A stretch of DNA of 32,000 nucleotides from Candidatus Saccharimonadota bacterium (lineage in GTDB: Bacteria; Pseudomonadota; Alphaproteobacteria; CAJXXZ01; 1604HC): NCBI RefSeq assembly GCF_008189525.1, contig NZ_CP043314.1, positions 90,001-122,000 on the forward strand, in the 5' to 3' direction. Every line of letters begins with the position of its first letter. The stretch's first letter is position 1. The position numbers were made by a program, and so were the translations under genes. This document shows, piece by piece, positions 12,282 to 25,625 of this stretch. The notes beneath the pieces are model-generated. The model saw nothing but the letters and a program-made list of their open reading frames with translations, searched no databases and was not told where the DNA came from.

Positions 12282-13004
12282 TTACATAGATTTGTGTACA
12301 GATTTAGCTATTGTGAGTCCAAAAATTTTTTTAGCACCAGAGAGTTTCAGAATCCTAGCACACTCTTCCATAGTTGCTCCAGTTGTTATCATATCATCTA
12401 TTATTAGTATATTTTTACCTTTTATTTCTTGTTTATGTATGCCATTTACTTCAAATGTATCTTTTATATTCTTCTGTCTTTGAAGTTGATTGTAATTGCT
12501 TTGACTTTGGGTGAATTTAGTTTTTAATATTCCAGTTTTAAGAAAAGTTTTGTTGGATATATCAGATACATGTTTTGCTATTAATGAAGTTTGATTGTAC
12601 CCCCTCCAAACCATTTTCCAGAAATGAATTGGAACTGTTACTATTATGTCTGTCCTGTCTAATAACGGCTTTCCGCATGAAACTAGAATCTTTGCAAAGA
12701 ATTTTGCCATATAAGTTGCGTTGTGATTTTTATATAACATGATTATTTTTTTACTAAAGCTATCGTACTTCATGGCTGATTTTATTTTATCTAAGTTGAA
12801 TTCTTTATTTATGCAGCTTGCACATAATGCAAACTCTGATATTTCGTGTGGAAATGGATTAGAGCACCTTATGCAAGAGGGATTGTGTATGAATGTAATT
12901 TCTTTCCAGCAACTATTACATAATCCATCTTCCTGTACTTCATTAGAGCAAGAGTAACAATATTTTGGGTTTATTATATCCACTATACTCTTTAAGTTAA
13001 TCAT
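12282..13004 (-). CDS. comF: ComF family protein (phosphoribosyltransferase-domain, N-terminal Cys-rich zinc-finger-like region)
   Basis: The PRPP-binding motif KNILIIDDMITTGATMEE lies near the C-terminus. The N-terminus has paired CxxC motifs (CYSCSN...CNSCW...CIRCSN...CASC). The start overlaps the tpiA stop (ATGA on the minus strand). Confidence 0.75.
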   Translation of the reverse strand: MINLKSIVDIINPKYCYSCSNEVQEDGLCNSCWKEITFIHNPSCIRCSNPFPHEISEFALCASCINKEFNLDKIKSAMKYDSFSKKIIMLYKNHNATYMAKFFAKILVSCGKPLLDRTDIIVTVPIHFWKMVWRGYNQTSLIAKHVSDISNKTFLKTGILKTKFTQSQSNYNQLQRQKNIKDTFEVNGIHKQEIKGKNILIIDDMITTGATMEECARILKLSGAKKIFGLTIAKSVHKSM

Positions 13005-13903
13005 TTATCTCTTGCTTCTGTATTCTGTGATTTATTATTTGTTAAATTTTTAGCTGTATTATGATTTTCTTTTGTCAAAGAGTTATCATTAAGTAAATCT
13101 TGTTTGTTTTTATATGTATTTGAATCTAAGCTCTTGTTAGAATTCTGATATTTGTTATTTTTTAAATATGAGCTTATTTCATAAATTGTAGGAAAGAAAT
13201 CTGTACTTAAGCTAAATCTACCAAAACAAATTCCATCAAACAAATCTACATAAGGCCATATATTTTCTTTGTTTAAAGATCCTCCATAACATACTTTTCC
13301 TTCTATATTTCTTTCTTTTAATAAGTTCTTTATTTGTTTGAAATCTTCTTCTAATTCATGAATTGGTGCTGCACTTGCTTTGCCTATGTAATGTTTTGGC
13401 TCCAAAATTACAGTTAGTTTATTTATTTGTTTATCACTTAATGATTTGATAAAACTCTTATTTTCTATTAATTTATACAACTCTAAATGATTTTCTACAA
13501 ATATGATTGGAATTAAGTTATTTGTAATAATATCTATAGCATGCTCTGATAAAGAATATTTTTCAGATCTAGTTTCTGAATGTCCACACAAGATATGTGT
13601 ACATAGATCTTTTAGCATTGAGGATGATATATTACCAGTAGAATTCTTACCTACATAATTTGAATTTTGTGCAGATAGAAAAATATTTGAATCTTCTGCT
13701 GTTGGATTATTTTTCTGCTCAGAGTATGTATAGATTGATTTTTTATGATATGAAAAAACTTCATTTAGCATATTTAATGAAACAAAAGGCACAGCAAATA
13801 TATTAGTTATATTGTCTATTTTATTTTGCTTTAAAAAAACATTTAGATCTTGTTCGAAGTTGGGTCTTAAAAACCCTTTCCAGTTTGATATAACAAAAAA
13901 CAC
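13001..13903 (-). CDS. tpiA: triosephosphate isomerase (divergent, with C-terminal low-complexity tail)
   Basis: It has a GTG start. TIM catalytic landmarks are present: ISNWKG (Asn/Lys), ILCGHSETR (His), ILEPKHYIG (Glu) and CYGGSL (phosphate loop). SAQNSNYVGKNSTGNISSSMLKDL aligns with E. coli [25 protein letters not shown]. Confidence 0.8.
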   Translation of the reverse strand: MFFVISNWKGFLRPNFEQDLNVFLKQNKIDNITNIFAVPFVSLNMLNEVFSYHKKSIYTYSEQKNNPTAEDSNIFLSAQNSNYVGKNSTGNISSSMLKDLCTHILCGHSETRSEKYSLSEHAIDIITNNLIPIIFVENHLELYKLIENKSFIKSLSDKQINKLTVILEPKHYIGKASAAPIHELEEDFKQIKNLLKERNIEGKVCYGGSLNKENIWPYVDLFDGICFGRFSLSTDFFPTIYEISSYLKNNKYQNSNKSLDSNTYKNKQDLLNDNSLTKENHNTAKNLTNNKSQNTEARDK

Positions 13904-15271: not shown

Positions 15272-15973
15272 TTACTTTGAATTTATTTTTCTATAAATTA
15301 ATAATCTAGATCCTTCAGGTATATTGTCAGATTTCGCTAAGCTTTTTTGCCCCGCTCCCTTATTAGCTTTTTCATTTACTGCTGTTTTCCTAGATTCATT
15401 ATTAGTTTTTCCATTAGAAAATTGTGTTCTAGGCATTAAAGTAGGAATTTTTTGGCTGTCTTTTTGAGATGTTTTGTGCTTTTTTTTAGGTATATTTTTT
15501 ATATCAAGTGCTTTAGGAGCAAGTCTTGGTTGTGTTGGTGTTTGAATCTGTGAATTCTCTGCAGACTTTCTAATTTCTAAATCTTTTTTAACGCTATCAA
15601 GTATTTTTATTAGAGTTTTATTATCAGGATGTATGCATTCTTTGCGATTTTCATATATATCTATCTTAATAGGTTTTGTTTTTCTGTCACAAAATAGTCC
15701 ATATGCAACAAGGTGATAAGTATCAAGAAGATCTGGGAAGATTATCTCTTGTGGTAAGAGGTGTGGTACATATATTGATGCCATAACTTCATCAGGAATA
15801 TTTGTATATTCTGTGTATAGTTCGCGTACTTCAGAGTAGTTTATATTTTGTGTTGAATAAACTGGCATATAAAATGAAAAAGCTAAGAATAGAAAGCTTA
15901 ATGATTTTCTTGAATTTCGGATATATTTTAAGATCTGATTTTGAGCAAACGTAATATTAAATAATATTTTCAT
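15272..15973 (-). CDS. hypothetical protein with N-terminal signal anchor and Lys-rich disordered tail (ORFan)
   Basis: This is a 233-aa ORF in DNA where stop codons are frequent. It has a hydrophobic segment (SLSFLFLAFSFYMPVYS) near the N-terminus. The C-terminal ~100 aa are K/Q/S/T/P-rich. I recognise no family. Confidence 0.6.
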   Translation of the reverse strand: MKILFNITFAQNQILKYIRNSRKSLSFLFLAFSFYMPVYSTQNINYSEVRELYTEYTNIPDEVMASIYVPHLLPQEIIFPDLLDTYHLVAYGLFCDRKTKPIKIDIYENRKECIHPDNKTLIKILDSVKKDLEIRKSAENSQIQTPTQPRLAPKALDIKNIPKKKHKTSQKDSQKIPTLMPRTQFSNGKTNNESRKTAVNEKANKGAGQKSLAKSDNIPEGSRLLIYRKINSK

Positions 15974-16083: not shown

Positions 16084-17475
16084 TTAATTCTCTTTTAGTG
16101 AGATAATTACAAATCTTTGAGCTAAATAGGCTAATTTTGAATAATGTATATTATCTTCTTGTAGGCACATTTTTTCATAGTGTGTTTTTATTTTTCCATC
16201 TTGTCTTTCAAAAACCATTGTATAATTCTCTGTTTTTCCTGATATTAATACATTTCTACTTTCACCGGATTTATGGATAACTATAATTCTAGCCTGCTCT
16301 TGATCATTGCATAGAATTCTGAATATTGAAAATTTTTTCATGTACAAAGCACCTTCTGGCCCTAATATATTTAATGCATATATTAATTTTTCTCTTAATT
16401 CTTTTGTCGTGCCATTAAGTGCTTCTATTTCTGTGCCATTAACTGTTCTTATTTTTACTAGATTAGCAATCCTATCTTTCATTGACTCTATTTCCAGATC
16501 TTTTTTTTCATTACTTTTTTGGGAAAGTCTAAGCGATTCTTCGGAGCTTTTGTGCTGCTTTTCTAGAATATCTATTTGTAATTTAAGCTGTTTTGAGGAT
16601 AATGCAGAGCACTCTTTTTCTGATTTCGTTAGATCTTCTTGTGTTTTGTTTAGCTCTGTTAAGCGTATTTTATCTTTTTCATAAGATTGGTTAAGTTTAG
16701 TTAATTCTTCGATTTGCTTCTTACTTAATTCTATAGATAAGTCTTTTTGTTCATTTCTTAGTTTAGAAACTTCAAGAGCTTTTTCCAGAGCTTCATATCT
16801 TAGTTTTAGTTCCTTAGTTTTTCCAATACTTGATATTTCTAGTACTTTTAGTTTTTGCTCAGCAATTTCTAGCTTTTTTTCTAATACAGTTTTCTCACTT
16901 TTAAGATTAATATTTTCAAGACTTAATTTGTGTTTTTCATTAACGAGATTCTGCTGTTCGCTTAAAAGACTTAAGTTTTGCGTAGATAATTTGACTTGTT
17001 GTTTTGCAAGTGACATACCTTGCTCTGTAAGATTTCCATTTTGTATTACAAGATCTCTATTTTTCTTTGCTAGTTCTAAATCTGCACTTACTTGTTCTAT
17101 TTTTCTTCGTAAGTCTTGTTGTGATGTTGCGAAGGTTAAGTTTGTAGATTCAGAGGCTAAATCCCAGTTAGCAAAATTTATTCCATTTAAATTTATTGCT
17201 TCTCCTTCCTCTCCATCTCTTACACTTGGATCTGCTAATTCTAGTTGTGCTAAATTTTCTGCATTCAATCTCTGAGTTTGTGTTTCATTTTCACTCGATG
17301 TTGTGCTATCAATATTTGTTTGATTATCATTTTTTAGAAACATATCTTCTAGAATATCTTCTATACAAATTGGGGTTGCAGAGCCTGGGTTTGATTCTGA
17401 TAAACTGTTCCCACCCTTTATATAAAATCCATTATATAACATTAGAATAGAAATGATTTTCTTAAAAATATTCAT
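16084..17475 (-). CDS. exported coiled-coil protein, family A paralog A1 (ORFan)
   Basis: This is a 463-aa ORF with RBS AGGAG 7 nt upstream of the ATG. The N-terminus MNIFKKIISILMLYNGFYIKGG is signal-peptide-like. It shares the WDL-S-STN box and the RYxxLE...R(N/H)E(Q/T)KDLS box with A2 and A3. About 250 aa are E/K/L/Q/N-rich and Pro/Gly-poor. Confidence 0.8.
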   Translation of the reverse strand: MNIFKKIISILMLYNGFYIKGGNSLSESNPGSATPICIEDILEDMFLKNDNQTNIDSTTSSENETQTQRLNAENLAQLELADPSVRDGEEGEAINLNGINFANWDLASESTNLTFATSQQDLRRKIEQVSADLELAKKNRDLVIQNGNLTEQGMSLAKQQVKLSTQNLSLLSEQQNLVNEKHKLSLENINLKSEKTVLEKKLEIAEQKLKVLEISSIGKTKELKLRYEALEKALEVSKLRNEQKDLSIELSKKQIEELTKLNQSYEKDKIRLTELNKTQEDLTKSEKECSALSSKQLKLQIDILEKQHKSSEESLRLSQKSNEKKDLEIESMKDRIANLVKIRTVNGTEIEALNGTTKELREKLIYALNILGPEGALYMKKFSIFRILCNDQEQARIIVIHKSGESRNVLISGKTENYTMVFERQDGKIKTHYEKMCLQEDNIHYSKLAYLAQRFVIISLKEN

Positions 17476-17622
17476 TTTTCATCTCCTTTTAAATCGAAGT
17501 TTAGTAAATATACATCATTTTAAGTTAGATAGGATAGTTAAATAACACTGATGTTTTGTTCGACAGTATGTGAAAATATGTATACAGCAGACCTGGAGGG
17601 GGTGATAAGTGTACAAGATATC

Positions 17623-18924
17623 TTATTTGAATTTACAAGAACGAGTAATTAATCCCAATCCATGCCCTGTAATCTCTTTGTAATTCTTAATAAACTCTTC
17701 AAAAATTTCTTTAGATTCTAGTTGTTGTGTGTTTTTCTTATCTTGTAATTTTTCAAATTTATTTCTTTTAGTTAATCCTGAGAACTTACGAATACATTCA
17801 TCTATGAGAGATTCAAAGTACATAAGCCTTTCATTTCTACATTCATAAGTCTGCCATTTCATGGAATAGAGACTTTCTAGCAAAATGAACAGGCTTTTTC
17901 TATGTTTTTTATTTTCTGAGGAAAGTGATTTATATTGATTTGATAAGGATACATATCTATATATAAACCTTTTTATTAGGCCTTCAAGTTTTATTTCCAT
18001 ATATCTCATTCTCTCTGAATGACTTTCTGCTTCAGATTGTGTTTTTGTTTTATATGCTGAATACTCTGCCTCTTTTTGTTTGAGTTTTAGTGCATCTTGG
18101 AATGAATTAAATTTAAGCATTTTAATTTCTCTGTCATGATTCCTAGATAAACTCTGTAAAGTTTCATCATGCTCAGATGTTCTTTGGTTGTATCTTTCTG
18201 TAAGACTCTTTAATTCTATTTTTAGTTTTTCTACTTCAATTTCTCTGGATTTGTTTTGTTCAGTTAAGCTTTTGAGGTTTTGTTTCATTTCTTCAGTAGA
18301 TAGGTCTTTTTGTTCATGTCTTTGTGAGGAAATATATAAAGCTTTTTCTAAAGAACTATATCCTTGCTTTAATTCTGTAGACTTTTCTTTGTTTGCTTCC
18401 TTTAGTTCCTCATATTGTCTTTTGAAAACTTCCAGCTGATTTTTCAAGGATGTATTTTCACTTTGTAATTTACAATTCTTGATATCTAGTTCACATACTT
18501 TGTTTTCAGAGTCCTGTAATTTAGAGAGAAGAGTATTATTTTCCTCTTGCTCTTTTATGATTTTTTGTAATTCTTGCTGTAATTCTGCGTACATAGGGTT
18601 TGTTGATGCTGACTCTAAGTCCCAATCTACTAAATCTAAATCTATTTCATCTAACATATTCATTCCACTCAGCTCATCTAAACCACATGAATTCAACTGT
18701 TTTAATTTCGCAGCAGTAAGCATTGGTGAGGTTTTTGTTGGTAGATCAGGAACTGGTGATGCTTCAGCAGCTTTCGATACTTTAGGAATTGATAGTTTTT
18801 CAAATTCATTTGTATCTGATAACTTTTCGAATTCACTTCCACCAAACATTGCATGCAACCCATTGCACAGCATTATCAAGGTAAATATATATATTGTTTT
18901 TTTCATGTTTTTGATCCTTTGCAT
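17623..18924 (-). CDS. exported coiled-coil protein, family A paralog A2 (ORFan)
   Basis: This is a 433-aa ORF with signal peptide MKKTIYIFTLIMLCNGLHAMFGG. An alternative start at 18906 has AAAGGA upstream. Family A boxes are present (VDWDLESASTNP, ELKQGYSSLEKALYISSQRHEQKDLS). The ORF-track start lies 1 nt from the B1 stop. Confidence 0.8.
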   Translation of the reverse strand: MQRIKNMKKTIYIFTLIMLCNGLHAMFGGSEFEKLSDTNEFEKLSIPKVSKAAEASPVPDLPTKTSPMLTAAKLKQLNSCGLDELSGMNMLDEIDLDLVDWDLESASTNPMYAELQQELQKIIKEQEENNTLLSKLQDSENKVCELDIKNCKLQSENTSLKNQLEVFKRQYEELKEANKEKSTELKQGYSSLEKALYISSQRHEQKDLSTEEMKQNLKSLTEQNKSREIEVEKLKIELKSLTERYNQRTSEHDETLQSLSRNHDREIKMLKFNSFQDALKLKQKEAEYSAYKTKTQSEAESHSERMRYMEIKLEGLIKRFIYRYVSLSNQYKSLSSENKKHRKSLFILLESLYSMKWQTYECRNERLMYFESLIDECIRKFSGLTKRNKFEKLQDKKNTQQLESKEIFEEFIKNYKEITGHGLGLITRSCKFK

Positions 18925-18925
18925 T

Positions 18926-20317
18926 TTATATAAAGTTTTTTATGTGAAGGCGTTGATCAGGTTTCTTATTTGCAATAAAAGTAATTCCTGTATTAGCATT
19001 TAGAACTTCTTTTAGATAAAGCTGTTTTCCAACTATGTTATTTCCCATAGCTTCGTTTAATTTAATAGAAATAATCATTATAGAAAGGAGCTTATTCCAT
19101 GCTGACTCTTTGTCTTTAGTGTCAAGTTTTAAGTCGAAAGCATCTATAAATTCAGTTGCTAGCTCTTTCTTTACTGAACAACTAGATTCTTTAAAAATAC
19201 TTGCAACTTTATCCCCTACTAGAGCAGCATCTGGCCTTGAAGCTTCTTTTAGTATTGCTCTATAAAAAGATAACTGATCTAAAGCGCCATTTAAATCTTC
19301 ATCTTTTCTGCGCATACTTCTATCACTATTTTTTATTTCAGATTCTAGTTTTGCATTTTCGACTTTGAATTCCAAAGCATTCTCTAGCTTGCTTTCTAGC
19401 GCATTTACTTTTTCTCTAAGTTTTTCAATTTCAGTGTCTTTAGATGACTCTGCTGATTTTAAATTTTGAACAACTTCTTTTAAGCTTGAAATTTCCATTG
19501 CTTGACTCAAAGATTTATTATGTGATTTTTCAGAATCTTCTTGTAAGTTTTTTATTGTACATTTTGCTTCTTCTAAAAGTTTATTGAGATGTAAAATTCT
19601 TTCTGTATTATGCTTTTCATTACACTCTTTTGATGTAGATTCTTTTACTAAACTTAATACTGCTTCTTGCTTTTCAGATTTTACAGACTCAAGCTCTAAT
19701 TCCTTAGAATTTAAATTTTTCTCTAATTTCTCTAGACTAGATTCTGCTTTTTCTATTGCTACACCTGAACATTCTAATCTAGCTCTTTTATCAGCAAGTT
19801 CTTTTATAGCAAATGCAAGCTTTTCTTTTTCAGAAAGTAGTTCTTGGTTTGAAATTTCTTTTTCATTAAACCTTTTATCTTTTTCTTTTGATAATTCTGC
19901 GTAAGACTCTCTTTCTTTTTTAAGTGATTCGGATACCGTATCATTTAATGCTTTATTTGAGCTTCTTAGGTCTCGATTCATATCAGATAGATTTAAAACT
20001 GCTTGTTGTTGAGTTTCAAGAAGTTGTCTAGTCATTGTAAGTTTGCAGTGCATATTTTGTAATTTACATTTCGCAATTTGTGCGATTTCCATACAAATAT
20101 GCTTATCTTTTTCAGTTTCTATTTTATCAAGCCAGGCATTTATATTTATATGCGCAGAACTCATCATAGTTCCTGTAGATGACACTGATACAGCGGTCAT
20201 TGTTTCATATTTTTCAGAGCTAGACAGGTCACCTGATTCCATGCTATGGATTTCGCCTGGCATAGCATTTATCATATTACATAGTGCTAACAGAGTTATG
20301 TATTTCTTTACATTCAT
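18926..20317 (-). CDS. exported coiled-coil protein, family B paralog B1 (ORFan)
   Basis: This is a 463-aa ORF with signal peptide MNVKKYITLLALCNMINAMPGE. It is alignable by eye with B2 over the coiled-coil part and a C-terminal non-coiled module (…GNNIVGKQLYLKEVL…). Confidence 0.8.
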   Translation of the reverse strand: MNVKKYITLLALCNMINAMPGEIHSMESGDLSSSEKYETMTAVSVSSTGTMMSSAHININAWLDKIETEKDKHICMEIAQIAKCKLQNMHCKLTMTRQLLETQQQAVLNLSDMNRDLRSSNKALNDTVSESLKKERESYAELSKEKDKRFNEKEISNQELLSEKEKLAFAIKELADKRARLECSGVAIEKAESSLEKLEKNLNSKELELESVKSEKQEAVLSLVKESTSKECNEKHNTERILHLNKLLEEAKCTIKNLQEDSEKSHNKSLSQAMEISSLKEVVQNLKSAESSKDTEIEKLREKVNALESKLENALEFKVENAKLESEIKNSDRSMRRKDEDLNGALDQLSFYRAILKEASRPDAALVGDKVASIFKESSCSVKKELATEFIDAFDLKLDTKDKESAWNKLLSIMIISIKLNEAMGNNIVGKQLYLKEVLNANTGITFIANKKPDQRLHIKNFI

Positions 20318-20500
20318 TTATTCTTACCTTTAATCAACCTAACAGCTTTAACAAAATTAAGTTTGTTAAAATTACAGCACAAAATAAACAAAAATAAAAC
20401 GATTACTCATTTTCAATCTATAAAAAATCCGTTTTCAAGTTTCATTTTGCTAATGTTGATTAACTGATTCTGCAAGCATTTTCGTAATTAAGACTCTGCT

Positions 20501-21499
20501 TCATTTTATGTTTTGTGATGAAAACAATTTAACTGCAGAAGGATTTTCAGCCATCAATTGCTTAACTTTAAAAAGATTAAAACTGTTTATTAATTTGTCA
20601 TAAGTTTTTGATTCTTTGATTAGTTTTAGAAAACTTTTAATGGTTTTTTCTTTATCATTATCTATCTTACTATCTAGTGATTTTTCTTTTAAATATTCCA
20701 TAAATAAATCTATGGAAATGTTACTAAGATCAGATAGAGAAACTTTATATAATTCACAAGCTGTTTTATTAACATAAGCTTCAGAGTTTGCAATTTTTAG
20801 TTCAAATTTAAGCAGTTCGTCATTTTTTCTAGCTTCAGAACTTTGCTGATTATATTTTGATTCTAATATATTTAGTTCAGCTTGTAATGATTCAGCCTTA
20901 ATTTCGTGCAGTTCTTTTAGAGAGGTTTGTTTTTCTAGTTTTTCTCTCATTTCTGCTATTGAAAGGTCTTTTGTTTCATGTCTTTTAGTTGAGGTAGAAA
21001 GAGACCTTTCCAAGCTGTTATATCTTTCTTTTAGCTCCCTAGTTTTTACACTATTTTCTTCTTCCAGATACTTAACTTTCTCTTGAGCATTTTTTAGTTT
21101 TATATGTAATAAATCATTCTCAGTTTTTAGATCAGTATTTTCCATATTTAATTTATGATTTTCATTTTCAAGCTTTTGTAACTTAGATAAATCATTTACA
21201 TTTTGTGCTAATAGATCTGAGCTTTCTTTTTGGTGATTTAATGCATTTTGTAAATCTTTTTGTAATGCATCAGAGGTAAGGTTTGTAGAAGTAGAGTCTA
21301 AATCCCAGTTTCTGGTTAATTCAAACAACTCATTATGCAGCTTAGATAAATTTTGGGCAGTAAGCTCAGATTTCATTTGTACAGATGCCAAGGAATTAGG
21401 TGAACTGCTCATGCTTGGTATACTCCCATTCCCACTTGGCATTGCACTTAATGAGCTGCAGATAGAAATTAATGTGATGTATTTCCTGATTTTTCTCAT
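20501..21499 (-). CDS. exported coiled-coil protein, family A paralog A3 (ORFan)
   Basis: This is a 332-aa ORF with signal peptide MRKIRKYITLISICSSLSAMPSGN. Family A boxes are present (RNWDLDSTSTNL, ELKERYNSLERSLSTSTKRHETKDLS). Its start lies 7 nt from the B2 stop. Confidence 0.8.
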   Translation of the reverse strand: MRKIRKYITLISICSSLSAMPSGNGSIPSMSSSPNSLASVQMKSELTAQNLSKLHNELFELTRNWDLDSTSTNLTSDALQKDLQNALNHQKESSDLLAQNVNDLSKLQKLENENHKLNMENTDLKTENDLLHIKLKNAQEKVKYLEEENSVKTRELKERYNSLERSLSTSTKRHETKDLSIAEMREKLEKQTSLKELHEIKAESLQAELNILESKYNQQSSEARKNDELLKFELKIANSEAYVNKTACELYKVSLSDLSNISIDLFMEYLKEKSLDSKIDNDKEKTIKSFLKLIKESKTYDKLINSFNLFKVKQLMAENPSAVKLFSSQNIK

Positions 21500-21506
21500 T
21501 TATTTT

Positions 21507-23468
21507 TTAATTCCTAATTAATCCTGCAACTTGAGATAAATCTGCAGTGGTAAATTTCTCCCCAGGCTTTGCGTTTGCTTTAAACAGAATATCTTGTGAG
21601 CTGCCAAATATTTCTTTCAAAAATAGGATATGCCCAACTATATTTTCTCCTGTGCATTGATCTAAAGACTTACATACCAACATTAGAGTTACAGATCTAT
21701 ATATTGACTTATTAATCTCTCCCTTTTTATCAAGATTTAGATTAAAAGAACGTATGAACTTAGATGCAACACAATCTTTTTTAGAATAACTTGAGTTTTC
21801 ATATATTTCTTTAACCTTTTGGAATGCATAACTTGGCTGTGAATTTTCAGCTGTTTCCAGTAATTTATCATATAGAGATACTTTTTCTTTTTTATTTGTT
21901 AATTTCTTTTGTATTTCCAATAATCTAGATTTCAATGTTTTATTTTCTTCTTTTAGTGCAGGTGCAATGCTTGGTATTTTTGCAACCTCTGCTTCTAGCT
22001 TTGTGTTTTTTGCTTTATATTCATTTAATTCAGCTTTTAGCATATCTATTTCAGATTCCTGTGACATACATTTAGACTCAAGGCCAGATAATTTAGTAAC
22101 TGTTTTTAGAATTGTTTCATCTGCAGATTCTTTATCTTTGGATAGGCTTGCTATTGTGCTATTTGCTTCTTCTAGTAATTTCTGAAGATAAGAGTTTTTC
22201 TCATTCATATTTCTTGTATTACATTCATTTGCTGTAGATTCTTTTGTGAGATCTAATTCCATTGAATGCTTTGCAGATTTTACAGCTTCAAGCTCAGATT
22301 CTTTAGAGTTTATACTTCTTTCTAATTTTTCTATATCAGACTCTGCTTTTGCTCTTGCTTCAGTTGAGTATTTCAGATTTGCATTTTTATCAGCAAGATC
22401 TTCTCTAGCATCTGCAAGTTTCTTTTTTTCTGCCATAAGATTCTCTTTGTCTATTAGTCTGCTGGTTTTTTCTTCTGATAATTCTGCAGCTCTTTTTCTC
22501 TCTTCTTCTTGAGCTTTAGATGCATTTTCTTGTGATTTAGCAGCCATATCAGCTAATTTAACAGTTGCTTCAGAATTTGCATTTATTGCTATTTGTTGGC
22601 CTGCAATAAATTGTTTTAATGATTCTATATATCTGTCTTTTTTGCCAAATCTTTTGTTTGAAAATTGAATTATTTCTGTGACAAGCTCTGTTTCTTCAGG
22701 ATTGTTGCATCGTTCTAACCAGCATCTTATTCTTTTAGAAGAATAAAGTGCTTCCATAGATCTTTGTGAGATGCGGGACAAAGAAGACTTATGAGACAGT
22801 GCATCCCAATCCATCTGAGGTAATGCTATGCCTGTACGAGAAGAAGCAACAGATGTTCCGGATCTTCTACTGGACTTTGTTCGTTCTGTTAAGTTTGCTT
22901 GCTGCATTTGCATTTGCATTTGCATCTGTTGCATCTGCATTTGTAGTTGGGCGATATTATCCTGCACTGAAGATGAAACAGATCCACTTTTTACTGAACT
23001 ACTAGATACAGATTTTACGCTTGATCTATTTGCATTAGGAGCTAAAACTAACTCTCTTGCATTTCCTAAACTTGCTGTAGGGGCTTCAGGTTCTACAGGT
23101 ATTTCTGCACGATTGCCTACATCACTAGTCTCTGACATTGTGACAAAAGTGCTAGCTGTGCTATATGCTGCAGATCCAACTTTATGAGCAGTGGATGAAG
23201 CAACAGAAAGTATTGCTGATCCAGCTCTGCTTAGCTGTGACCTAGTTTGACTAGCTTGCGTTTCTGTATACAAATCTGTTGAAGTGCTTGATCTAGAGGA
23301 TGTTGGTCCATTTTCAGGTACTTGCTCTATTTTCTCAGATTCAGATCTCAATTCGCATGAAGTGCTAGAGTCATGTTCTGACTGTATAGAGTTTGTCTCT
23401 ATGTCTGCTTCTATAGATGCGTAAATACTACTGCATAATATAGAAAGAATTAAAAACTTCTTTTGCAT
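21507..23468 (-). CDS. exported coiled-coil protein, family B paralog B2 with S/T-rich N-terminal region (ORFan)
   Basis: This is a 653-aa ORF with signal peptide MQKKFLILSILCSSIYASIE. About 190 aa are S/T-rich low-complexity sequence that includes QMQMQQMQMQMQMQQ. The rest is a coiled coil and C-terminal module alignable with B1 (…GENIVGHILFLKEIF…). Confidence 0.8.
   Translation of the reverse strand: MQKKFLILSILCSSIYASIEADIETNSIQSEHDSSTSCELRSESEKIEQVPENGPTSSRSSTSTDLYTETQASQTRSQLSRAGSAILSVASSTAHKVGSAAYSTASTFVTMSETSDVGNRAEIPVEPEAPTASLGNARELVLAPNANRSSVKSVSSSSVKSGSVSSSVQDNIAQLQMQMQQMQMQMQMQQANLTERTKSSRRSGTSVASSRTGIALPQMDWDALSHKSSLSRISQRSMEALYSSKRIRCWLERCNNPEETELVTEIIQFSNKRFGKKDRYIESLKQFIAGQQIAINANSEATVKLADMAAKSQENASKAQEEERKRAAELSEEKTSRLIDKENLMAEKKKLADAREDLADKNANLKYSTEARAKAESDIEKLERSINSKESELEAVKSAKHSMELDLTKESTANECNTRNMNEKNSYLQKLLEEANSTIASLSKDKESADETILKTVTKLSGLESKCMSQESEIDMLKAELNEYKAKNTKLEAEVAKIPSIAPALKEENKTLKSRLLEIQKKLTNKKEKVSLYDKLLETAENSQPSYAFQKVKEIYENSSYSKKDCVASKFIRSFNLNLDKKGEINKSIYRSVTLMLVCKSLDQCTGENIVGHILFLKEIFGSSQDILFKANAKPGEKFTTADLSQVAGLIRN
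22903..22943. repeat. imperfect hexanucleotide repeat (TGCATT/TGCATC)n encoding (Q-M)n in B2
   Basis: The plus strand reads TGCATT TGCATT TGCATT TGCATC TGT TGCATC TGCATT. It lies inside the B2 CDS, and its unit length keeps the reading frame. Confidence 0.8.
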
Positions 23469-23590: not shown

Positions 23591-24850
23591 TTATACTGAA
23601 ATATCTTCTAAGCTATAGCTAGCTTTAGCTTCAGTTTTATAGCCTGAATGCATATTTTTTTGATCATATAGATAGGTAGCATAAGTCACCATAGCTGCAT
23701 TATCGCTACAAAACTCAGGTTTTGGTACGAATATTTTTTTCCCATTTTTTTCTGCAAAATCACGTAATTTGTTCTTTATAAACATGTTAGAGGCGACACC
23801 TCCTACAAAAACCCAATTTTTTATTTTACAGTTTTCTGATGTGTTGTTTGAGTTATTTATTTCTTGTTCTTTGTTGTTATGAAATTTACTTCCCAATGCA
23901 TTGCGTAGTCTCTCTATTAAAGATTCAGATATAGCATATTGAAGTGCATAACATAGATTCTGTTTGTACTTTTCTGACTTGTCGCTTGATTCCCATTTTC
24001 TTATTACAGCAGTTTTTAATCCTGAGAATGAAAAATTACAACTTTTATCATTTTTCAGGGGCACTGGAAGGTTGAAATTTGGATTCTTAAGGCTAAATGA
24101 ATTTGGATTTTTGCTAAATTCGCTTTGCAAGGCTAGTTGCTCTATATGTTTGCCAGCTGGGTTCTTTAGTCCTATCTTTCTGCCAAATTTATCCAGTATT
24201 TCTCCCACAGCATCATCTAATGATGTTCCTAATACTGAATATTTTCCTAGATCAGTTGCTATAGCTAGCAGTGTATGCCCTCCAGATGCCAATATTACTC
24301 CATAAGGAAAGTCCAATCCTGTGAAGGAGATGCTTTCATTTTTAGAGAAGTTATTATCTGAGCCATTTTGTAAATTATTATTATTATTTAGAGTTTTTCC
24401 TGCTGATTGTTTGTTTGAATTTATATGTTCATTTTGTACATTTATTGAATTATAAGCATGCTTCCATTTCGCTACTAGCAAATGAGCTTCCAAGTGGTTC
24501 ACAGAAACAAAAGGTATATTTAAGGACCAAGCTAAAGTTTTGGCAAAGGTTACTCCAACAGTAAGGCTTCCTAAAAGACCAGGCCCTACTGTAGCTCCTA
24601 TGCAGTGTAGATCATTAGGTTTTATATTTGATTCTTTCAAACATTCTCTAACCATTCCTGGTAATTTAGTCATATGATCTCTTGATGCATATTCTGGTAT
24701 TACTCCGCCAAAATCGGAGTAATCATGTGTTATGGTTTTATTGCATATGCATTTTTCATTGTTAAATATTGCTACTGTTGTATCATCACAGCTAGTTTCT
24801 ATTCCTAAGTAGAATTTATTATACACACTAAATTCTATATCGTTTTGCAT
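23591..24850 (-). CDS. tsaD: tRNA N6-adenosine threonylcarbamoyltransferase TsaD (Gcp/Kae1 family) with low-complexity insertions
   Basis: GIETSCDDT, the metal-binding HLEAHLL, ILASGGHT and VGGVASN motifs occur in the canonical order. The product is 419 aa against about 340 typical, because of N/S/K-rich inserts. Confidence 0.9.
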   Translation of the reverse strand: MQNDIEFSVYNKFYLGIETSCDDTTVAIFNNEKCICNKTITHDYSDFGGVIPEYASRDHMTKLPGMVRECLKESNIKPNDLHCIGATVGPGLLGSLTVGVTFAKTLAWSLNIPFVSVNHLEAHLLVAKWKHAYNSINVQNEHINSNKQSAGKTLNNNNNLQNGSDNNFSKNESISFTGLDFPYGVILASGGHTLLAIATDLGKYSVLGTSLDDAVGEILDKFGRKIGLKNPAGKHIEQLALQSEFSKNPNSFSLKNPNFNLPVPLKNDKSCNFSFSGLKTAVIRKWESSDKSEKYKQNLCYALQYAISESLIERLRNALGSKFHNNKEQEINNSNNTSENCKIKNWVFVGGVASNMFIKNKLRDFAEKNGKKIFVPKPEFCSDNAAMVTYATYLYDQKNMHSGYKTEAKASYSLEDISV

Positions 24851-24929: not shown

Positions 24930-25430
24930 TTAGTCATCTGACTCTTCTTTTGTTTTAGGTTTATCTTCTACATATACTTCTAATTCTTGCATTAAGAGTA
25001 TTCTTTCTGAAACTAAATGATCAATTTGACCGCTCAATTTAGCATTTGCTTTGTAGAGAGTTCTGCATGCGCGTTCTATCTTATTTCTTTCCAGCTTCAG
25101 AATATCTCTATCTTGCTCTATGTGCATTGCGCTTGTAATAATAGATGTGTTTCTTGCCTTTAATAGGCTTACTTCTTGTATTAATGTGTTTATCAAGCTC
25201 TGAGAAGTTTTGTTGATTTCAGCTGCAGAATCTGTCTGTGTAGATGAGTCAGATTTTTTAATTTCTTTTAGAGGAATATTTGACCTTGCAGTGTCAGAAT
25301 CATATCTTGAAGAAAAAAACACTTTGTCATTTACAATGTAATTAACAATATAGTCTGAATCCTGCTCTTTGGGAGAATTTTGCAAAACATCTCCAGAGAA
25401 GCAACATAACAAACAAGATAGAAATTTCAT
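24930..25430 (-). CDS. hypothetical small protein with Cys-rich hydrophobic N-terminus and C-terminal coiled-coil-like segment (ORFan)
   Basis: This is a 166-aa ORF. It starts MKFLSCLLCCFSGD and contains a YIVNYIVN duplication. The C-terminal half (LINTLIQEVSLLKARN...LSGQIDHLVSERILLMQELEVY) is heptad-like. I recognise no family. Confidence 0.6.
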   Translation of the reverse strand: MKFLSCLLCCFSGDVLQNSPKEQDSDYIVNYIVNDKVFFSSRYDSDTARSNIPLKEIKKSDSSTQTDSAAEINKTSQSLINTLIQEVSLLKARNTSIITSAMHIEQDRDILKLERNKIERACRTLYKANAKLSGQIDHLVSERILLMQELEVYVEDKPKTKEESDD

Positions 25431-25625
25431 TTATTTATTTTATAAAAGATTTATAAATGAAGTGTTAAGGTTATGTGAATGATCAAGATTTGGTCAGTGC
25501 TCAAACTTGATAAGTGTTAAGTAATTTGCTGGTATTGTTCCAGAAATTTTACTTGAAAGAAAAGGGGTTCAAGTTATGGATATCAAATCTCTCTTATCTA
25601 TTTTGTATATATTTTGTTATATCAA

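Follow-up and report, generated by a model that had tools for sequence, protein, structure and literature searches.

What kind of protein is encoded by a tandem array of orphan genes in a 616-kb endosymbiont genome, and what do the members of the array have in common? We addressed this question for a 32,000-nucleotide (nt) stretch, hereafter the window (assembly GCF_008189525.1, contig NZ_CP043314.1, positions 90,001 to 122,000 of the forward strand), from Candidatus (Ca.) Nesciobacter abundans, renamed Ca. Ignotibacter abundans, a member of the Holosporaceae and endosymbiont of the marine diplonemid Diplonema japonicum. The array consists of three genes of one family, A1, A2 and A3, interleaved with two genes of another, B1 and B2. 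An earlier note, made from the letters of the window alone, had described the A proteins as holding two short boxes constant while the rest diverges, and had taken their conserved N-terminal module and variable C-terminal end for the architecture of an effector or adhesin family. The reading that we favour, with moderate confidence, is that A1–A3 form a species-restricted family of paralogs encoding elongated coiled-coil proteins, probably exported by the Sec pathway, which arose by an ancient tandem duplication of a B–A cassette plus a solo A gene and which probably take part in host interaction.

Conservation of A1–A3 across a common core

As composition shuffles are too lenient a null model for coiled coils, scores were also compared with those of unrelated coiled-coil orphans, taken from this cluster and from related genomes as an empirical background. 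Smith-Waterman comparisons of the three A proteins against composition shuffles gave z scores of 14–19 over the full length and 14–22 over the core, compared with values up to ~7 in the coiled-coil background, which establishes the three as homologs. Their conserved core covers ~200 residues at 33–40% pairwise identity, and a sliding conservation profile showed it to be alignable without interruption, with peaks of 0.5–0.6 at the two boxes and values of 0.3–0.5 in the rod between them. Box 1 has the consensus WDLxSxSTN and follows a short helix, LTAxNLxQL, that is also conserved; box 2 is marked by charged residues that do not vary among the three proteins, R-x-E-x-K-D. Both lie where the earlier note had placed them (box 1 Trp codons at 17164-17166, 18622-18624 and 21305-21307; RNEQKD of A1 at 16741-16758), and the peptides and plus-strand strings that it quoted are correct.

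The boxes are the two top-scoring three-way windows of nine residues, each with 21 of 27 identities, against 14–16 for unrelated coiled-coil triples from the same cluster and a mean of 14.9 (maximum 17) in 30 shuffles. Neither motif occurs again when the window and 1.6 Mb of other loci are translated in all six frames, and a search of the box patterns against 596 Gb of genomes returned 31 matches, none of which encodes a relative. Since their statistics exceed the background and their motifs recur nowhere else, the boxes are neither shuffled coiled-coil noise nor a generic low-complexity coincidence, the two outcomes that the earlier note had named as fatal to its claim. When the 179 ungapped columns of the core were permuted, the best nine-residue window had p=0.15 and the second best p=0.01, and windows of 12–15 residues were not significant; the rod between and around the boxes (~110 residues) is likewise conserved, within the same range of identity. 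Therefore, the boxes are better described as peaks of a conserved core than as islands: the picture of constant boxes in a diverging protein holds insofar as they mark the conservation maxima, with a nonsynonymous distance (dN) about half that of their surroundings, and fails insofar as the rod has been conserved with them.

The dN estimates are ~0.3 in the boxes, 0.6–0.8 in the rest of the core and ~1 in a C-terminal alignment that is itself meaningless. Over the core as a whole, dN is 0.5–0.6 against saturated synonymous sites (dS 1.2 to >2), a saturation among the three paralogs that makes a proper dN/dS scan impossible. All five A and B open reading frames (ORFs; 332–653 codons) are intact in a genome of 30% guanine-plus-cytosine (GC) content. 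Judged from the intact frames, the core dN relative to saturated dS and the low dN of the boxes, the genes are maintained. The saturated dS and the roughly equal distances among the three A copies indicate that the duplication is old.

The further claim that box 2 is conserved even at the nucleotide level did not withstand comparison with codon usage. Codon identity at its invariant residues is 0.55 against an expected 0.50, as identical residues and AT-biased codon usage predict, and we reject a separate nucleotide-level element there. For box 1 the corresponding values are 0.67 and 0.43, on 8 codons only, and the box lies within a 64-nt segment that is 69–77% identical among the three A genes. 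Its WDL recalls the clathrin W-box PWxxW, and its W-x-L comes near an LC3-interacting region (LIR) motif; it matches the consensus of neither, and an assignment of box 1 to these eukaryotic short linear motifs was rejected.

Beyond the core, the C-terminal parts (110–180 residues) gave pairwise z scores of ~0, also in all frame combinations, and blastn returned nothing significant. Alignment and C-terminal scores thus agree with the earlier description of a shared N-terminal and central module followed by unalignable, unrelated ends. With no similarity at the level of protein, DNA or any pair of frames, a frameshift origin of the variable ends is untraceable, and this candidate explanation was discarded.

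A predicted coiled-coil rod that keeps its heptad phase

The AlphaFold2 (AF2) model of A1 predicts a single unbroken helix of ~230 residues (113–343) with box 1 directly before it; the predicted local distance difference test score (pLDDT) is 90–95 around box 2 and the remainder of the model is of low confidence, including the last ~110 amino acids (aa), for which the model gives a mixed alpha/beta domain. For B1, AF2 predicts two long helices (69–181 and 188–329, 113 and 142 residues) and, with low confidence, a C-terminal domain. Between the Trp of box 1 and the Arg of box 2 the spacing is 136 residues in A1, 101 in A2 and 108 in A3, all equal to 3 modulo 7, an agreement expected by chance in ~1 of 49 cases, and MAFFT independently sets gaps of exactly 28 and 7 columns, that is, whole heptads. 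With indels of 28 and 7 residues, both boxes retain the same heptad phase, and this spacing pattern is the signature predicted for a coiled coil in which the phase between the boxes is kept. The long helix predicted for A1, a positive crude heptad score along the core and the phase-keeping indels place the A proteins among coiled-coil proteins. Under the crude register, three core positions in a row within box 2 would be polar and conserved, namely S (d), N/H (a) and K (d), flanked by invariant R, E, D, L and S.

N-terminal segments and probable export

Four of the five proteins (A2, A3, B1 and B2) begin with K/R residues followed by a hydrophobic stretch of 10–12 residues (Kyte-Doolittle 1.8–2.5, starting at residues 3–8), and each has a putative cleavage site, with a slash marking the cut: LHA/M (A2), LSA/M (A3), INA/M (B1) and IYA/S (B2). 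The cytoplasmic and housekeeping proteins of the window, judged as were the signal-peptide-like segments by eye and hydropathy only, are without such an N-terminus. A variable S/T/P/N-rich linker separates the segment from the core in the A proteins. The alignment of A and B profiles by hhalign is confined to this segment, and for that reason A and B are not demonstrably homologous. The earlier proposal that the shared part handles export gains plausibility from hydropathy against the controls for the four proteins above, less so for A1, the corresponding segment of which is degenerate, with a hydrophobic stretch but no clear cleavage site. All five proteins thus carry signal-peptide-like N-termini, and A1–A3 are probably exported by way of Sec. 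The published genome analysis reports 44 signal-peptide proteins in the whole Nesciobacter genome, numerous hypothetical putative secreted proteins, remnants of a type II secretion system and type IV pili, and an altered type VI secretion system (T6SS).

Two B–A gene pairs and a solo A gene

The cluster occupies ~7.4 kb of the genome. The B1 stop codon lies 1 nt ahead of the first ATG of A2 and 19 nt ahead of its likelier start, M7 at 18906 (427 aa), which has AAGGA 8 nt upstream and agrees with the length of 427 aa in public gene calls. Shine-Dalgarno-like sequences ahead of A2 and A3 are located within the ends of the B genes, and longer spacers precede B1 (183 nt) and A1 (147 nt). Two B–A gene pairs and a lone A1 amount to the layout of a duplicated B–A bicistron plus a solo A, and A2 and A3 are predicted to be co-transcribed with their upstream B genes; scans for promoters and terminators found nothing above shuffled expectation. 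The idea of a B-family partner, raised in the earlier note, fits this gene order, with two B–A pairs separated by 7 nt and by 1 or 19 nt. B1 and B2 are paralogs (z=41) that, in contrast to the A family, also conserve their C-terminal domain (z=22). B2 carries an additional S/T/Q-rich N-terminal region of ~190 aa that B1 does not have; within it (22900-22950 and 22800-23400), we observed a QMQMQQMQMQMQMQ run and a segment, MDWDALSHKSS, that faintly recalls box 1 of the A family.

Searches for relatives and phyletic restriction

A profile built from the three A proteins, as the earlier note had proposed, was searched with hmmsearch against 1.84 billion representative sequences and returned only those three, so that the hoped-for further members were not recovered. 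Likewise, when 5.8 billion proteins were searched by word index with the profiles of A and B, only self matches appeared. Scans of A1–A3, B1 and B2 against Pfam, NCBIfam, PADLOC and PHROGs yielded only sub-threshold coiled-coil noise, with no Pfam match at E<=1 for A1 and A2; the best E-value in a sequence profile search of the PDB was 0.038, and Foldseek found 0 matches to the A1 model in the PDB at E<=0.001. The label of effector or adhesin is thus not borne out by any homolog, domain or structural match in these searches, and a periplasmic or envelope-structural role fits the same data.

Several specific candidates were considered and rejected. The best score to the Mycoplasma helix-rich protein profile (TIGR04523) was 30 bits, for B1, against a cut-off of 270. 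Matches to SMC-type arms (SMC, JetC and LmuB) reached 13–24 bits against cut-offs in the hundreds and are compositional coiled-coil matches. A trimeric autotransporter adhesin has no Pfam or NCBIfam match here, and the C-termini are mutually unrelated. For chlamydial Inc-type or SNARE-like proteins, no internal hydrophobic domain was found in A1–A3, alongside the lack of Pfam matches for A1 and A2.

By TsaD (43–45% identical), the closest genomes are those of Cytomitobacter species and a 558-kb metagenome-assembled genome. In four such genomes, the atp operon comes directly after comEC-HIT-tsaD, and neither A nor B genes are present; hence the cluster is restricted to Nesciobacter, at a rearranged junction. 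Cytomitobacter primus, which is co-resident in the same host cell, has its own orphans inserted next to tsaD. Two of them, Cp194 and Cp747, resemble the A family in having a common signal peptide (ending ...SYA/M), a shared N-terminal module (61% identical) with a coiled coil, differing C-terminal parts and one copy adjoining tsaD; they differ in that their variable part is an AAEQY-type helical repeat and that no B-like partner gene was seen. Homology of A or B to Cp194/Cp747 was rejected (hhalign probability 2–3%), and the same design thus occurs twice with no detectable homology.

Within this C. primus family (locus L082, 8773-9357, 16930-19173 and 6535-8493, minus strand), the N-terminal module has boxes of its own, YYRSQIKEDRADDFAHITYMQ and KLELQxxQNEFNxQIxKLQNE. 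Cp747 and Cp652 have AAEQY-type helical repeats in common, with faint SNAP/TPR matches, and Cp194 and Cp652 are located between tsaD and the atp operon. The four related genomes also hold one orphan gene each between obg and comEC (L085 11350-12318, minus; L084 4488-5555, plus; L082 13797-15281, minus; L083 13599-13922, minus). Three of these four proteins have a signal-peptide-like N-terminus, Cp494 of L082 being the exception, and their mutual z scores are at most 2.5; being unalignable with one another, they suggest a fast-evolving positional gene.

Genomic context of the cluster

The A1 protein is identical in two independent assemblies of the 616-kb genome, one of which is GCA_960610765.1 (OY490516.1), from the Tree-of-Life. 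The GC content of the window is ~30%. Its first part holds the ribosomal-protein/secY/adk/rpoA block, tsaB and leuS, and a single minus-strand run then comprises comEC, HIT, X426, X166, tsaD, B2, A3, B1, A2, A1, X233, lipA, a tpiA-like gene and comF. Positions of the features analysed are collected in Table 1.

Table 1. Positions, within the window, of the A and B genes, their conserved and variable segments, and neighbouring orphan genes
Feature	Positions	Strand	Basis or remark
A1 gene, 463 aa, monocistronic	16084..17475	-	own AAGGAG Shine-Dalgarno; ORF list
A2 gene, 433 aa from first ATG	17623..18924	-	ORF list
A3 gene, 332 aa	20501..21499	-	7 nt downstream of B2 stop codon
B1 gene, 463 aa	18926..20317	-	upstream partner of A2
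B2 gene, 653 aa	21507..23468	-	upstream partner of A3; paralog of B1
Box 1 core in A1, NWDLASESTN, residues 103-112	17140..17169	-	directly N-terminal to long helix
Box 1 core in A2, DWDLESASTN, residues 100-109	18598..18627	-	motif match
Box 1 core in A3, NWDLDSTSTN, residues 64-73	21281..21310	-	motif match
Box 2 in A1, ELKLRYEALEKALEVSKLRNEQKDLSIE, residues 222-249	16729..16812	-	within long predicted helix, pLDDT 90-95
Box 2 in A2, residues 184-211	18292..18375	-	alignment and motif
Box 2 in A3, residues 155-182	20954..21037	-	alignment and motif
A1 conserved core, residues 70-290	16606..17268	-	alignment and sliding conservation
A2 conserved core, residues 70-250	18175..18717	-	alignment and sliding conservation
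A3 conserved core, residues 46-222	20834..21364	-	alignment and sliding conservation
A1 variable C-terminal part, residues 291-463	16087..16605	-	no similarity to A2 or A3
A2 variable C-terminal part, residues 251-433	17626..18174	-	no similarity to A1 or A3
A3 variable C-terminal part, residues 223-332	20504..20833	-	no similarity to A1 or A2
A3 signal-peptide-like N-terminus, MRKIRKYITLISICSSLSA/M	21443..21499	-	hydropathy and n-region charge against cytoplasmic controls
Orphan X233	15272..15973	-	hydrophobic segment at residues 24-36
Orphans X166 and X426	24930..26906	-	between tsaD and HIT, adjacent genes in relatives

The orphans on either side of the cluster show some features of their own. 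In X426 (25626-26906, minus strand), a hydrophobic segment at the N-terminus and a hydrophobic tail at the C-terminus (GNPIGSFFNTVTLGLVGAVMN) enclose an S/T-rich region and a coiled coil, and X166 (24930-25430, minus strand) combines a Cys-rich hydrophobic N-terminus with a coiled coil. Together they break the HIT-tsaD adjacency that is intact in the four related genomes. X426 weakly resembles Cp494 of C. primus (z 5.8–7.9) and X166 resembles Ci107 (z ~5), both within the coiled-coil background. TsaD itself (23591-24850, minus strand) is 419 aa long, compared with 327–334 aa in the Cytomitobacter relatives to which it is 43–45% identical, the additional length consisting of N/S/K-rich low-complexity insertions, for example around residues 125–175 and 325–345. 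A triosephosphate-isomerase-like ORF (13001-13903, minus strand; 300 aa) matches Pfam TIM weakly (E=2.8e-19) and ends in an N/K/S-rich tail of ~55 aa; glycolysis is reported lost in this organism. A peptide-chain release factor ORF (29946-31196, minus strand; 416 aa) carries an N/K-rich N-terminal extension of ~70 residues ahead of its PCRF domain.

Proposed function and its alternatives

Under the reading that we favour, the exported core would form a coiled-coil rod, either with further copies of itself or with the B protein encoded on the same predicted transcript. Box 2 may serve as a polar layer that sets the register or the partner within the rod, and box 1 as a cap or docking motif at its start; the rod would display a different C-terminal module in each paralog, giving different specificities. 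The proteins would most likely act at the bacterial envelope or surface or in the host cytosol, where they might position the bacterium against host structures such as the mitochondrion or bind them. For an obligate symbiont that lives in the host cytoplasm in association with the mitochondrion, action on the host or at the bacterial surface is the most plausible role.

Comparable proteins are known from related and unrelated intracellular bacteria. The 89-kDa and 63-kDa proteins of Holospora obtusa are reportedly lineage-specific periplasmic proteins that are then released towards host structures. They come from the same family, Holosporaceae, and would offer a precedent for Sec-exported orphans acting on the host; they differ from the A proteins in that no sequence relation was detected by profile search, Holospora sequences not having been compared individually, and in that no tandem family of paralogs with B-type partners is described for them. 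Specialised infectious forms exist in Holospora and are not known for Nesciobacter. The Inc proteins of Chlamydia and the coiled-coil effectors of Legionella and Coxiella are lineage-restricted paralogous families that act on host proteins and membranes. The A proteins resemble them in being lineage-restricted, paralogous and rich in coiled coils. Unlike the A proteins, these effectors are delivered by type III or type IV secretion systems without a Sec signal peptide; the bilobed hydrophobic domain of Inc is absent from the A proteins, and no homology was found.

Five points weigh against our interpretation. The signal peptide of A1 is degenerate, with Tyr in place of the conserved Cys and no xA/M or other clear cleavage site. 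Exported proteins may or may not cross the outer membrane, the secretion systems of this organism being reduced. The AF2 models are of monomers and have low overall confidence (predicted template modelling scores of 0.25 and 0.21). The heptad register is crude, coming from a home-made score and not from a trained predictor. Finally, the comparison of three sequences sets the boxes only marginally apart from a core of uniform conservation.

Among the alternatives, the one that survives best, unlikely as we consider it, is that these are structural proteins of the envelope, i.e., periplasmic or lipid- or membrane-anchored rods that act as spacers or scaffolds, as Lpp does. An envelope-structural role fits the same data and ranks second to a host-directed one. 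A Sec-type N-terminus takes a protein no further than the periplasm, this organism has reduced secretion systems, and rods of the predicted length (~230 helical residues in A1, 113 plus 142 in B1) would suit spacers. Moreover, A2, A3, B1 and B2 share a Cys midway along the hydrophobic segment (L/I-C-N/S; 18860-18924, 21443-21499, 20260-20317 and 23415-23468). However, its contexts (IML-C, ISI-C, LAL-C and SIL-C, with Tyr in A1) do not match the lipobox [LVI][ASTVI][GAS]C: the residue before the Cys is L or I and not G, A or S, so that the canonical motif is lacking, and the Cys is missing from the C. primus analogs, with their ...SYA/M ending. Lpp (Braun's lipoprotein) and periplasmic spacers are, like the proteins predicted here, exported alpha-helical coiled coils of the Gram-negative envelope; Lpp has 58 residues, a canonical lipobox and wide conservation, whereas the A proteins have 332–463 aa and are species-specific. 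Conservation would be expected of a structural part of the envelope, yet the sister genera are without the family, and C-termini that are unrelated among paralogs would be odd for a scaffold.

It is distinctly less probable that the three A genes are simply drifting apart, that is, that they have decayed at different rates since an old duplication, with the boxes as those parts of a generic coiled coil that decay most slowly and the C-termini replaced or scrambled without meaning. Saturated synonymous sites, a core identity of only 33–40%, the statistically marginal clustering of conserved columns and a codon bias that explains the nucleotide identity in box 2 would all accord with drift. Set against these are the intactness of all five frames in a genome with, according to its published analysis, very few pseudogenes, the exact preservation of heptad phase by the indels, a box dN half that of the remaining core, the lack of any frameshift trace linking the C-termini, and the retention of the whole cluster in so small a genome.

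An elaboration of the host-directed reading, which we regard as a long shot, is that the B–A pairs form heteromeric rods displayed on or released from the endosymbiont, acting as tethers or spacers at the bacterium–mitochondrion interface, with box 2 as the A–B pairing layer and the C-termini binding different host targets. Membrane apposition points have been seen at this interface in D. japonicum, where a tethering complex is not known (PMC13462478).

We consider it very improbable that the genes are eukaryote-like coiled-coil genes acquired horizontally from the diplonemid and fitted with bacterial signal peptides. Such an origin would agree with the complete lack of bacterial homologs and with weak sub-threshold Pfam matches to the eukaryotic coiled-coil families Nuf2, ATG16 and HAUS6. 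Those matches, however, fall well short of the cut-offs and are such as coiled-coil composition typically produces, the base composition of the A and B genes equals that of their neighbours, and the 1.84-billion library holds no eukaryotic match, diplonemid genomes being possibly poorly represented in it. The least credible alternative is that of polymorphic-toxin-like cassettes with an N-terminal delivery module, a variable C-terminal toxin and a neighbouring immunity gene: the layout of a conserved N-part and variable C-ends among tandem paralogs is shared with CdiA, Rhs and MafB, and the organism is reported to retain T6SS parts and effector/immunity pairs elsewhere in its genome, but searches of Pfam, NCBIfam and PADLOC recovered no domain of the toxin, immunity, Rhs, PAAR or VgrG type, no demarcating motif is present, the genes downstream of the A genes (B1 and A1, which both encode large coiled-coil proteins, of 463 aa each, B1 with a signal-peptide-like N-terminus, and X233) are unlike a typical small immunity gene, and the N-termini are of Sec type and lack T6SS-type delivery features.

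Implications for the symbiosis

Although most of its metabolism is gone, the 616-kb genome retains ~7.4 kb of orphan genes in tandem whose coiled-coil products are probably exported, with more such orphans beyond tsaD. With only 44 signal-peptide proteins predicted in the genome, the cluster would account for a substantial part of the repertoire that the symbiont could present to the host. The family itself is new, an orphan described here; its kind is familiar, that of the lineage-specific exported coiled-coil paralogs of intracellular bacteria. The analogous, non-homologous family of Cytomitobacter points to repeated invention, or very fast evolution, of this type of protein. If the A and B proteins do serve in positioning by the mitochondrion or in another host interaction, they would be concrete candidates for the interface of an energy-parasitic symbiosis.

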